From NCBI GenBank assembly GCA_963741075.1, contig CAVUGS010000013.1, positions 67,084-131,083 of the forward strand: 64,000 nucleotides of DNA, given 5' to 3'. Within the stretch, counting starts at the first letter, position 1. Each line of letters opens with the position of its first letter. Position numbers and translations under genes: made by a program. This document shows, in pieces, positions 60,926-64,000 of this stretch. Origin of the DNA: an uncultured Thermoleophilia bacterium (GTDB lineage Bacteria > Actinomycetota > Thermoleophilia > UBA2241). A model generated the notes under the pieces. That model was not told the DNA's origin. It saw nothing but the letters and a program-made list of their open reading frames with translations, and ran no database searches.

Positions 60926-61891
60926 GTGTCCGCGCTCATCGACCAGTTGCAGCGCGCCCTGCGGGCGCGCCACTACAGCCGCCGCACCGAGCAGGCCTAC
61001 TGCCTGTGGGTGCGGCGGTACGTCCGCTTTCACGGGCTCCGTCACCCGGCAGACATGGCGGAGCCCGAGATCAACGCCTTCGTCACGCACCTGGCCGTCG
61101 CCGAGCACGTCAGCGCCTCGACGCAGACCCAGGCACTCAGCGCGCTGCTCTTCCTCTATCGCCACGTGCTGCACCGCCAGGTCGGCGAACTCCACGAGCT
61201 GGTCCGCGCACAGAAGCCCGCCCGGCTGCCCGTGGTGCTGAGCAGGGAAGAGGTCCGCGCCGTCCTCCGCGAGCTCGACCGCGACGACCCTCAGAACTGG
61301 CTCATCGCGTCGCTGCTCTACGGCGCCGGCCTGCGGCTCACCGAGTGCCTGCGCCTCCGCGTGCTCGACCTCGACCTGGCCCGAGGCGAACTCACCGTCC
61401 GCTCGGGCAAAGGCGGCAAGGACCGCGCCACCACGCTCCCGCAGGCGCTCGTCCCCGATCTGCGCGACCAGCTGCGCCGCGCGAAGCTCCTCCACGAGCG
61501 CGACCTCGCCGACGGCTGGGGCGCCGTCGAGCTCCCGGACTCCCTGGAGCGCAAGTACCCGCGCGCGCCCCGCGAGTGGCGCTGGCAGTGGGTGTTCCCG
61601 CAGCGGCGCCGCTGGATCGACCGCCGCAGCGGGCGTCAGGGCCGGCACCACGTGCACCCCTCCGTCGTCCAGCGTGCGGTCAAGGAGGCCGTCGAGCACG
61701 CCGGCATCGCCAAGCACGCGACCTGCCACACGCTGCGTCACTCCTTCGCGACCCACCTGCTCGAGACCGGCTACGACATCCGCACCATCCAGGAGCTCCT
61801 GGGCCACAAGGACGTCGGCACCACCATGATCTACACCCACGTCCTCCAGCGTGGCGGCCAGGGGGTGCGCAGCCCGCTCGACACGCTCTGA
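60926..61891 (+). CDS. intI: Integron integrase IntI (tyrosine recombinase), intact
   Basis: [37 protein letters not shown], the IntI-specific insertion [51 protein letters not shown]. Confidence 0.9.
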
Positions 61892-62095
61892 AAGCCCTGT
61901 CGCTTGGCCTTCCGCCCGCGAAGTCAGACGGTGGATAGCCGAGAAGCTGGAGCAGCAGCCGAAGGCGAGTTGAGTGAGTCCCGCCCCGCCAGCCCTTACG
62001 CAGTCCGCATATCCGGCTCATCCGAACCTGGTGGTAGGGTGTTACGCAGAAGCAGGCAGCTGCTCAAGAGGTCTTATGCAGACTGCAGAATAGTA

Positions 62096-62102
62096 GTTGG
62101 GC
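62096..62102 (+). other. Candidate attI crossover core GTTGGGC
   Basis: This is the first GTTRRRY after intI. It lies at the end of a lower-GC 200-nt stretch, and its distance to the attC1 R' core (572 nt) matches the cassette length. Confidence 0.3.
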
Positions 62103-62584
62103 GTACACAGGGGCGTGAGGGAGATCGTGCGCAGAGGTCTGCTCATCGTGCACGTTGCGGCGGCTCTGGGCCTGTCGCGCTCGCGGCCTCCGCGTGCGGC
62201 GAGAGCAAGGCCGTGGCCCAGCCCAGCGCTCTCCTACGCGCTCGAGCCGACGCTCCTCGACATCGCCGACGTCGCTCTCGCCGAGTCACGACCCGCCCGC
62301 GTGCTACTCCACGTCGACCCGGCTCAGCGCCTGCGCGTCCTCATCGCTCGCGCAGCAGCTGCTCGACTCGCGTTACGCTGCGCCGCGTCGCGGCCGCTGA
62401 CGGCAGCATGGTCACGCCCGAGCCGGTGCCGCTCGACGGCAGCCCGGCACGGGGTCTCGCACGCGCATCTGCTACGCGCTGCTCACGCACGCTCGGCCGT
62501 CGAGCCCGGCTACTCCGCCTCGACATCGCTCGGTCGCGGTCGTATCATCTCGCTCATAGTCGGAGAGGCATGAGTGAGCGTGAC

Positions 62585-62674
62585 GCCCAACAAGCGGATC
62601 AAGCTGGCTCGCCGAAGCGCCGACGGCATCACGGGAGATCGTCGCGCTCGCAGCTTATCCGCGGTGCGTTGGGC
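62585..62674 (+). repeat. attC site 1
   Basis: R'' GCCCAAC ... R' GTTGGGC. Inner arms GCGGATCAAGCTGGCTCGC / GCGCTCGCAGCTTATCCGC pair with bulged bases. Confidence 0.8.
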
Positions 62675-62694
62675 GGAGTAGCCGGAGGCGTGGC

Positions 62695-63117
62695 ATGAGC
62701 AAGCGAACCTGGATTGTGCTCGGGGTGCTGGCAGCGGTCCTCGTGGGCGCACTCGCCGCCGTCTTTTTGTCCGGGGTGGTCGTCCGCGGGGACCCGTTCA
62801 CGGGGCTGTGGAACTCAGGCGGCAAGCTGACGGACAAGGGTCCGAACGGCGGCTACCTCATCAAGCACACCGCCGACGGATACGAAGTCAGCGAGGTCGT
62901 CGGCAAGGACGTCCTCCAAGGCCCGCTTCCGCTGAAGCGCGACGGGCGGCACGCTCGTCGGCGAGTGGGGCGGCGGCCTGCGAGGACTTTCGTGTACCAG
63001 CCTTGGAACGGTCGTCTCATCCTCAGCGCCTGGATCCACGGTCGGCCCGACGTACCCCCCGTTCTGACTCTCAGGAAGGCGACGAGCAGCACCTCCATCC
63101 CGCCCGGGGCCGACTGA
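62695..63117 (+). CDS. Cassette ORF: hypothetical protein with N-terminal TM anchor
   Basis: Starts 21 nt after attC1 and ends before attC2. MSKRTWIVLGVLAAVLVGALAAVFL... The C-terminal half may contain an indel. Confidence 0.5.
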   Translation: MSKRTWIVLGVLAAVLVGALAAVFLSGVVVRGDPFTGLWNSGGKLTDKGPNGGYLIKHTADGYEVSEVVGKDVLQGPLPLKRDGRHARRRVGRRPARTFVYQPWNGRLILSAWIHGRPDVPPVLTLRKATSSTSIPPGAD

Positions 63118-63145
63118 CTGTGGGGGGTGCGGTGGTGGCAGACCC

Positions 63146-63235
63146 GCCCAACAAGCGCATCAACCTGACGCGACCAACGGCTCCTGTAGTAACTTGGAGC
63201 CGCAGCCCGCGCAGGTCATGCGCCGGGCGTTAGGT
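63146..63235 (+). repeat. attC site 2
   Basis: R'' GCCCAAC ... R' GTTAGGT. Inner arms GCGCATCAACCTGACGCG / CGCGCAGGTCATGCGC pair with extrahelical bases. Confidence 0.85.
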
Positions 63236-63295
63236 CGACGCGGTCGGTGAACTGCTGATCATCCACCTGGAGAGTCGAAGGGCCTCGTACGAGCA

Positions 63296-63670
63296 ATGCT
63301 AGAATCGCTCGCCTACACGGTGCTTGTGATCGGCCTGCCCCTGCTTGCGGTGGTCTGCTTCATCGTCGGCCTCGTCAAGCGCGCAAGCCCCCCGCAATGG
63401 CTGGTTGCAGGGGCTACCGCGCCTCCGGTCGCAGCAGTCGGCGTTGCGATATGGACGATCCAGCAGTACGGCGCGGACAGTGTGACGCTTTCCGTCATCC
63501 TCTACTCGACCGCGGCGGTCGCGCTGCTCATCCTGGGCACAGTAATCGCGAGTCGAGCGAACCGGCTCGGCCGCGGGCTTCTGGTGACCGGCCTGCTCAT
63601 GCCCGTCCTGCCCGCAGTAGCCGTGCTGCTCTTCTACCTCGCCCTCGCGACATCCGGGGGGATGGAGTAG
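63296..63670 (+). CDS. Cassette ORF: small polytopic membrane protein
   Basis: 124 aa with about four hydrophobic helices, lying between attC2 and attC3. Confidence 0.55.
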   Translation: MLESLAYTVLVIGLPLLAVVCFIVGLVKRASPPQWLVAGATAPPVAAVGVAIWTIQQYGADSVTLSVILYSTAAVALLILGTVIASRANRLGRGLLVTGLLMPVLPAVAVLLFYLALATSGGME

Positions 63671-63698
63671 TCGTGCCACTGGGAAGGCGCAAGCCGCG

Positions 63699-63788
63699 AC
63701 CTAACAAGCGCGTCAACCTGACGCGACCAACGGTGCCTGTAGTAACGTCAGACGTAGTCCGCGCAGGGTATTGCGCGGTGCGTTGGGC
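63699..63788 (+). repeat. attC site 3
   Basis: R'' ACCTAAC ... R' GTTGGGC. The left half is nearly identical to attC2 (AACAAGCGC.TCAACCTGACGCGACCAACGG.GCCTGTAGTAAC). Confidence 0.85.
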
Positions 63789-63872
63789 GGGCGGGCAGGT
63801 CGGAGGCGCGAACGAACCGGGGCCTCCGGGGCAGCGTCCCTCTCGCATCCGTCGAAAGGCCTTGGAGGCGTC

Positions 63873-64000
63873 ATGAAGCGTTCGGCGATCGCGCTGGTCC
63901 CGCTTGCCGCCATCGCGCTGGCCCTTGCCGCTCTCCCGGCCTGCGGCACGTCCACGCCGCCCTCGCCGTCGCCGTCTCCCTCTCCCGAGTCAGGCGTGCA
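63873..64000 (+). CDS. Cassette ORF: putative lipoprotein (3' end outside window)
   Basis: MKRSAIALVPLAAIALALAALPACGTSTPPSPSPSPSP has a lipobox-like LPAC followed by a Pro/Ser linker. Confidence 0.5.
   Translation, partial: MKRSAIALVPLAAIALALAALPACGTSTPPSPSPSPSPESGV

Follow-up and report, generated by a model that had tools for sequence, protein, structure and literature searches.

The window analysed here is a stretch of 64,000 nucleotides (nt) from an uncultured Thermoleophilia bacterium, UBA2241 (contig CAVUGS010000013.1, positions 67,084-131,083, assembly GCA_963741075.1). Beside the pntAB genes it carries an integrase gene (intI), followed on the same strand by an attI site and by cassettes that each end in an attC site. 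We consider it very probable that this locus holds a complete integron of the 'inverted integrase' type, chromosomal and sedentary, in an uncultured member of the Thermoleophilia (Actinomycetota). An earlier note on this DNA had already proposed a sedentary integron next to pntAB, and its descriptive statements were all confirmed. The mechanism is ordinary, that of the known inverted-integrase type, and the host range is the notable part.

The integrase and its recombination sites

The product of intI is an integron integrase. IntI scores 470.4 bits against the NCBIfam model TIGR02249 'integron integrase' (curated cut-off 265) and far lower against the models of XerC, XerD and XerA; it contains two Pfam domains, the SAM-like N-terminal Phage_int_SAM_4 and the catalytic Phage_integrase. 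Residues 8-320 align with VchIntIA (PDB 2A3V; E = 2.7e-92), including the IntI-specific additional domain (around patch III), which is aligned with a single one-residue gap. The segment quoted in the earlier note as an IntI-specific insertion falls on this domain of a bona fide IntI, and the gene is intact, as was claimed there, with all six catalytic residues (R137, K162, H268, R271, H294 and Y303) present. Among the residues of VchIntIA that contact the extrahelical bases, W219 and H240/H241 have equivalents in W220 and H241/H242, and the positions equivalent to W157 and P232 of VchIntIA are both occupied by Arg. Compared with six relatives, intI shows dN/dS values of 0.10-0.23 and is thus under purifying selection.

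The recombination sites were characterized in the window together with the 80 top-ranking species-representative genomes that encode an IntI relative, one locus being fetched around each IntI homologue (compared loci and contigs are denoted by L-numbers; L113 is a metagenome contig). A nucleotide profile of the three attC sites of the window yielded 131 matches in the window and the 80 loci, all on the intI strand and downstream of intI; in the window itself, only the three known sites were matched. The homologous sites number more than 100 and lie in about 20 Thermoleophilia genomes assembled from metagenomes. We aligned 111 distinct attC sites as bottom strands with MAFFT, without fitting them to any structure, and counted pairs on a hand-drawn structure comprising a 7-bp R box, an unpaired spacer (5-6 nt / 2 nt) and a 16-bp L stem with two bulges. 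In this alignment, 88.5% of the cells pair, compared with 26-37% when the partners are slid by 1-3 columns, and 11 pairs show two-sided (compensatory) changes. Covariation is seen in columns 18-82 (CG57/GC47), 20-81 (AU82/GC22), 24-76 (GC59/CG49) and 28-71 (CG97/UA13). Two bases, a nearly invariant G in column 79 and another in column 72, are bulged from the 3' arm of the bottom strand, where the extrahelical bases of canonical attC sites reportedly lie. These data establish the attC structure of a family of sites that are 86-91 nt long, with a mean column identity of 73%.

A covariance model built from the 111-site alignment and run on the 64-kb window produced exactly three matches (Table 1), well above what chance would give. 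The equal-length attC sites with RYYYAAC/GTTRRRY cores described in the earlier note, each exactly 90 nt long, with starts 561 and 553 nt apart, are the ones that our model accepts, at 63-96 bits. In the reverse orientation, the same sites score only 21-29 bits, so the model reads orientation. A generic hairpin scan (NNNNAAC...GTTNNNN) was dropped, as the palindromic cores give no orientation and attC3 was missed; because of these palindromic cores, orientation was settled by the asymmetric covariance model combined with the co-inheritance test described below. As single strands, the three sites fold better than shuffled sequences (z from -2.4 to -5.1). The bottom strand of attC1 forms one imperfect hairpin (-25.5 kcal/mol, z = -2.6), and the corresponding values for attC2 are -31.3 kcal/mol and z = -5.1; for these two sites only, the expected single hairpin is the minimum-energy fold.

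Two side observations concern the stem of these sites. In about 60% of the attC sites, a CGCG/CGCG stem segment is swapped for CGAG/CGAG on both arms (alignment columns 28-31/68-71; in the window, for example, 62606-62609 and 62646-62649). The CGAG/CGAG arms would form tandem G.A mismatches flanked by covarying pairs (C-G to T-A), and the segment recurs as a non-Watson-Crick element of the attC stem. In attC3, an L'' arm of the 'GCGCGT' subtype faces an L' arm ATTGCGC, resulting in L-box mismatches; this site may be a hybrid or in decay, or its sequence may contain an error.

The attI site and the first cassette were absent from the earlier reading and are added here. The attI site is defined by the block conserved downstream of intI (Table 1), which ends in GTTRRRY, with similarity lost immediately beyond this point in all eight loci. 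The block contains the core-like direct repeats CTTACGC (61995), GTTACGC (62041) and CTTATGC (62073), and its crossover core is GTTGGGC (62097-62103), with recombination predicted to occur between G62097 and T62098. Within the 64-kb window, the motif TTAYGCAG is found only at attI, and TTGGGC of attI is exactly complementary to the R'' core of attC1. The repeats are likely binding sites of IntI. Direct repeats, of the GTTACGC/GTTATGG type, also lie upstream of the crossover core in attI1, and the repeats of the window may resemble them.

Cassettes as mobile units

If cassettes are inserted as circles at the junction G/TT, the R' at the start of a cassette is expected to be complementary to the R'' of the next attC. 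Perfect complementarity between R'' of a site and R' of the preceding site was found in 67 of 84 consecutive pairs, compared with only 12 of 118 cases in which R'' perfectly complements the R' of its own site; the observed agreement was reached in 0 of 10,000 permutations (random mean, 2.2 of 4 matching positions). All three junctions in the window and the attI junction are perfectly complementary, and the R'' of attC3 exactly complements the R' of attC2, as it should if the two bound a single cassette. This test is strand-symmetric and therefore proves modularity only, so that polarity needed a separate test. In all eight homologous cassette-body pairs of matching length, the downstream attC sites are more similar than the upstream ones (mean 0.83 vs 0.72), and the downstream attCs of four nearly identical cassette bodies are 0.92-1.00 identical. 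The unit of inheritance is therefore an ORF (open reading frame) with its downstream attC, the arrangement of every integron known so far, and the top strand is the plus strand of the window. Strand-specific covariance-model matches, cassette polarity and the orientation of attI agree that intI lies on the same strand as the cassettes and the attC top strands, as had been claimed. Cassette 2 and its homologue in L023, 42% identical in amino acid (aa) sequence, show the opposite pattern, with the upstream attCs 0.93 and the downstream ones 0.68 similar. The reversed polarity suggested by this pair was rejected, given that the stricter homologous pairs favour the downstream attC by 8 to 0, and the simplest explanation of the exception is that two diverged cassettes share an attC subtype by chance. 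By these sequence comparisons, the cassettes are discrete units, each an ORF with its own attC, whose cores match as insertion of circles would predict.

Cassettes 94-99% identical to one another occupy different positions within and between genomes. Duplicates are found inside the arrays of L007 (13028-13400 and 18329-18701), L066 (12297-12624 and 15811-16139) and L023 (13055-13266 and 13997-14208), and one cassette is common to L007 and L008 (97% identity). Cassettes 1, 2 and 4 of the window have homologues in other arrays: cassette 1 is 69% identical at the nucleotide level to a cassette of L113 along the whole of its body, the ORF of cassette 2 has homologues in L093 and L086 in addition to L023, and cassette 4 matches L001 17223-17427 at 75% nucleotide identity, in a different array position. 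Genomes that are 85-92% identical in the flank carry wholly different arrays.

With the crossover at the attI core (62097), the first cassette spans 62098-62668 (Table 1). Short plus-strand ORFs start 21, 61 and 85 nt past attC1, attC2 and attC3 (62695, 63296 and 63873), within the 20-85 nt that had been given for them, and the array continues beyond the window, as also noted before, because the last ORF is cut by the window end. In the relatives, arrays are long: for L007 and L023, at least 17-18 attCs were counted within the first 10 kb. None of the cassette proteins of the window has a Pfam match or a match in PADLOC (anti-phage defence). The earlier statement that the cassettes encode only envelope-associated unknowns applies to the four visible cassettes, with two lipoproteins, one protein with a transmembrane (TM) anchor and one with four TM segments, but not to the related arrays. 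There, the cassette ORFs are mostly on the plus strand, and many encode small membrane proteins and lipoproteins; the cargo also includes ankyrin-repeat proteins, S-adenosylmethionine (SAM) methyltransferases, PemK/MazF toxins, a PEMT/ICMT-like enzyme, DUF4160 and DUF4304. Such cargo is typical of a sedentary integron. As a side observation, a 42-codon ORF (62571-62698) with a GGAGAGG ribosome-binding site runs through attC1, and its TGA overlaps the ATG of cassette 2 (ATGA); this overlap could reflect translational coupling across attC, or chance.

Table 1. Features of the integron and its upstream region in the window
Feature	Position	Strand	Evidence or detail
Upstream gene order: DegV/FakA-like gene, pntA, pntAB, pntB, then a small membrane ORF on the minus strand	5' of intI		
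Palindrome GTGACGTTGCCGGTCAC, consensus GTGACG-N5-CGTCAC	60871-60887	+	Directly upstream of the putative intI promoter
Putative intI promoter: TTGAAC (60891-60896), 17-nt spacer, CACGCT (60914-60919)	60891-60919	+	
intI, integron integrase, 321 aa, intact	60926-61891	+	TIGR02249, Pfam, 2A3V alignment
attI	61995-62103	+	~110-nt block conserved downstream of intI in 8 loci
Cassette 1: frameshifted lipoprotein gene and attC1	62098-62668	+	Homologue in L113
attC1: R'' GCCCAAC, R' GTTGGGC	62585-62674	Top strand on +	Covariance model, 96.0 bits, E = 7.5e-23
Cassette 2: ORF 62695-63117 (140 aa, N-terminal TM anchor) and attC2	62669-63229	+	G+C at third codon positions (GC3) 0.83, GGAGG ribosome-binding site
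attC2: R'' GCCCAAC, R' GTTAGGT	63146-63235	Top strand on +	Covariance model, 87.3 bits
Cassette 3: ORF 63296-63670 (124 aa, four hydrophobic segments) and attC3	63230-63782	+	GC3 0.81
attC3: R'' ACCTAAC, R' GTTGGGC	63699-63788	Top strand on +	Covariance model, 63.3 bits, E = 7.8e-14
Cassette 4: ORF from ATG 63873, lipoprotein-type signal peptide (...LAALPAC/G)	63783-64000, cut by window end	+	

In the mechanism that we propose, the tyrosine recombinase IntI would recognize the folded bottom strand of attC and the double-stranded attI. Recombination between two attC sites would excise cassettes as circles, and recombination between attI and attC would insert them between G62097 and the following TT. 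Each cassette consists of one short ORF followed by its own 86-91-nt attC, with intI, attI, the cassette ORFs and the attC top strands all on the plus strand. The element would be inherited vertically within the clade at its fixed locus beside pntAB, with the cassette content turning over.

Chromosomal locus, host and relatives

The region from 48.5 to 61.9 kb of the window is collinear with contigs of eight metagenome-assembled genomes (MAGs), at 85-92% nucleotide identity. These contigs, 45 kb to 1.1 Mb long, come from MAGs labelled Thermoleophilia or Actinomycetes. The arrangement of pntAB, the small ORF and intI is syntenic in the eight related contigs, and homology stops exactly at the intI stop codon. 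A possible chimeric join at about 60.5 kb, which the earlier note had marked as a point to check, is excluded by the alignments to L007 and L023, which are uninterrupted across it. Because the junction of pntAB and intI is syntenic in eight related contigs, the contig is not chimeric and the integron is sedentary; the element is chromosomal and located at a conserved locus, with cassette content apparently the only part that differs between relatives. The actinobacterial host proposed earlier is supported, every syntenic contig being a MAG with one of these two labels.

Actinomycetota account for 41 of the 80 genomes with an IntI relative (by label, 19 Thermoleophilia, 11 Coriobacteriia and 11 other or unclassified Actinomycetota), and the covariance model detects co-oriented attCs downstream of intI in the Actinomycetota relatives. 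Weak co-oriented matches of 21-31 bits were found in one locus each of Planctomycetia (L036), Chlorobiota (L034) and Desulfuromonadales (L048). The nearest non-actinobacterial IntIs, from Chlorobiaceae, Planctomycetia and Desulfuromonadales, are 62-69% identical. In a rough neighbour-joining tree computed with no support values, the IntI of the window falls inside a Thermoleophilia clade, which is joined by Coriobacteriia; Chlorobi, Planctomycetia and Desulfuromonadales branch further out, and VchIntIA is far (no Treponema reference was included). Another actinobacterial class is represented by the 1.84-Mb scaffold of Coriobacteriaceae bacterium EMTCatB1 (L060), a near-complete genome not labelled as a MAG, with intI and, downstream of it, co-oriented attC matches of 53.7 and 44.6 bits. 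Exact look-ups of the IntI protein and, among metagenome contigs, of a 45-mer from cassette 4 gave no match. A 22-nt degenerate attC motif was detected in more than 120 metagenome contigs among the matches listed, often several times per contig and in one orientation; attCs of the window type are common in metagenomes from soil, peat and sediment.

Three contigs with intI carry labels of other groups: L004 (Deltaproteobacteria, 91% IntI identity), L022 (Nitrospirales, 69%) and L058 (Eubacteriales, 68%). Sites of the attC family of the window are present in L004 and L058, and none were found in L022. These contigs reflect either binning errors or transfer between phyla. They are also what can be cited for the reading that the integron belongs to another phylum (e.g. 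Chlorobi or Deltaproteobacteria) and owes its actinobacterial context to mis-assembly or mis-binning. We regard this as very improbable: the junction of pntAB and intI occurs in eight independently assembled contigs whose alignments are continuous across it, the G+C content of the integron (0.66-0.72) is the same as that of the flanks, and L004, with a length of 4.7 kb, is the sort of contig that is typically mis-binned.

Still less credible, almost to the point of dismissal, is a recently acquired mobile integron that entered the chromosome on a transposon or plasmid. Such an origin could be argued from the 55.7% full-length identity of IntI to IntI1 and from an additional 1-9 kb that, relative to the window, separates pntB from intI in L001, L003 and L006. 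It is opposed by the conservation of the locus across species, by an intI tree that roughly follows host groups, and by the homogeneity of the attC sites, a signature of sedentary integrons (PMC4889954). The best match of IntI among plasmid records is at most 57.6% identical, none thus being closer than 58%, and no transposition genes flank the integron among the ORFs of the window. Nor is IntI near-identical to a reference of the mobile classes 1-5, and the context is chromosomal.

The extra DNA in L001, L003 and L006 implies that the upstream junction also varies. Further features of the flank are peripheral to the integron. A tRNA gene (28323-28407) is followed by a stretch of low G+C content at 30000-34000 (0.52-0.63 vs ~0.72), which may be a tRNA-linked genomic island. 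Compared with four related genomes, single-base indels private to the window were found at ~58805, ~58900, ~59072 and 60256. These place pntAB and pntB in different frames, with PntB split in two frames, and represent either long-read assembly errors or pseudogenes, so that ORF calls in the window need caution.

Expression, activity and place among known integrons

A palindrome directly upstream of the putative intI promoter (Table 1) is invariant across 12 aligned intI upstream regions. When one mismatch is allowed, about 20 loci of the Thermoleophilia clade have it upstream of intI (among them L001, at 9947-9963, L007, L009, L017, L023, L028 and L066), those closest to the window at a constant distance; it was not found in the more distant loci compared. 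Exact copies occur once per 20-kb locus and always upstream of intI. The palindrome is a candidate operator of intI that probably overlaps its promoter. In the close relatives, the promoter hexamers and their spacing are conserved (TTGAAC-17 nt-CA(C/G)(G/A)CT). The GTG start of intI lies 6 nt beyond the CACGCT hexamer, and a leaderless mRNA is possible. Upstream of intI, no match to the actinobacterial LexA box (TCGAAC-N4-GTTCGA) was seen by eye.

Transcription of the cassettes could start by read-through from intI or at a promoter in the 205-nt spacer between intI and attI. Read-through is possible because the spacer contains no consensus promoter and no terminator-like site was found after intI. 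Among the relatives, this spacer ranges from ~95 to ~610 nt, and any fixed cassette promoter (Pc) would therefore lie inside the conserved attI block. A promoter-like sequence at 62520-62548 was rejected as a cassette promoter: it is inside the coding region of cassette 1 and is not conserved in L113.

Several observations weigh against a complete and working integron in an actinobacterial host. The taxonomy rests on MAG labels and not on a marker gene of the window, which contains no rRNA. A search of 58-64 kb of the window against Rfam gave no match even at E <= 1. A scan for promoters, of the sigma-70 type only, found none matching the consensus at 61892-62097; its only consensus match was the rejected 62520-62548, so that no cassette promoter was identified. 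The inner (L) stem of attC3 is mismatched, with the lowest model score and a minimum-energy fold that is not the canonical hairpin. Cassette 1, finally, is frameshifted: the homologous frame in L113 is unbroken, encoding ~145 aa that include a lipoprotein signal peptide, and cassette 1 differs from it by indels at ~62177, 62228, 62347 and 62371, and the region 62098-62584 has no frame with high GC3 and looks non-coding. For cassette 1, we consider sequence error at least as likely as pseudogenisation, because private 1-nt indels occur in pntAB and pntB too; with indels also in these neighbouring core genes, either sequence errors or some decay are indicated.

These defects of cassette 1, attC3 and the neighbouring pntAB and pntB genes are the case for an integron that is real but an inactive relic, in which intI and the array are retained and cassettes no longer move. 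We find a relic unlikely. The integrase gene is intact and under purifying selection, arrays are wholly different between genomes that are closely related in the flank, and near-identical cassettes are found at different positions. The indels, moreover, hit essential-looking core genes as well, and assembly error therefore fits better than decay. The element is probably still active.

Integrases oriented like their cassettes form a minority group that has been described before and was reported as paraphyletic (PMC4889954), with members in Treponema denticola, Chlorobium and Planctomycetes (Boucher et al. 2007, as discussed in PMC4889954). Like this group, the integron of the window has intI on the strand of the attC top strands and the cassette ORFs, and attI just downstream of the 3' end of intI. 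It differs in its host, of class Thermoleophilia in the Actinomycetota, with relatives in Coriobacteriia, in its own attC family and in the clade-specific palindrome at the intI promoter. With the superintegron of Vibrio cholerae (VchIntIA), the window family shares a fixed chromosomal locus, homogeneous attCs, long arrays in relatives, a cargo of small unknown proteins and toxin-antitoxin genes, and the fold and key residues of IntI. Unlike in that system, intI is co-oriented rather than divergent, there is no recognizable LexA box, and Pc cannot lie inside a divergent intI. Class 1 integrons are similar in the full-length identity between IntI and IntI1 and possibly in the direct repeats of attI; in contrast to them, the element lies outside any transposon or plasmid, has homogeneous attCs and an inverted orientation, and carries no resistance genes.

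Two successive surveys of complete genomes reported that complete integrons were missing from Actinobacteria, a gap that was called puzzling (PMC4889954, PMC9024848), and a 2026 soil study describes a "virtual absence" of integrons in Actinomycetota (PMC13323075). Actinobacteriota appear in one review's list of phyla with detected integrons, no detail being given (PMC8618304). In the literature on integrons in Thermoleophilia, Coriobacteriia and Actinomycetota, we found no description of the integron family of the window. The earlier note had cited the surveys accurately (PMC4889954, PMC9024848) but overstated the rarity of such integrons, as public MAG collections hold dozens of them, already annotated as 'integron integrase'.

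A broader reading, possible but tentative, is that the window represents an old lineage of inverted integrons specific to Actinomycetota (Thermoleophilia and Coriobacteriia), inherited largely vertically and with a control logic of its own. Under this reading, a conserved palindromic operator other than a LexA box would control intI, whose mRNA would possibly be leaderless, and cassette expression would be coupled to integrase expression, because the two are co-oriented with no terminator between them, instead of being driven by a constitutive Pc.

Complete integrons that look active are present in at least two actinobacterial classes with few or no cultured members. The distribution of integrons in Actinobacteria thereby becomes a matter of testable comparison between actinobacterial classes. 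The window is a source of a high-G+C attC/IntI pair for recombination work and a natural case for the study of cassette expression when intI is co-oriented. If an Actinomycetota-specific lineage does exist, the 'absence' reported for Actinobacteria would be an artefact of having sampled cultured genomes.

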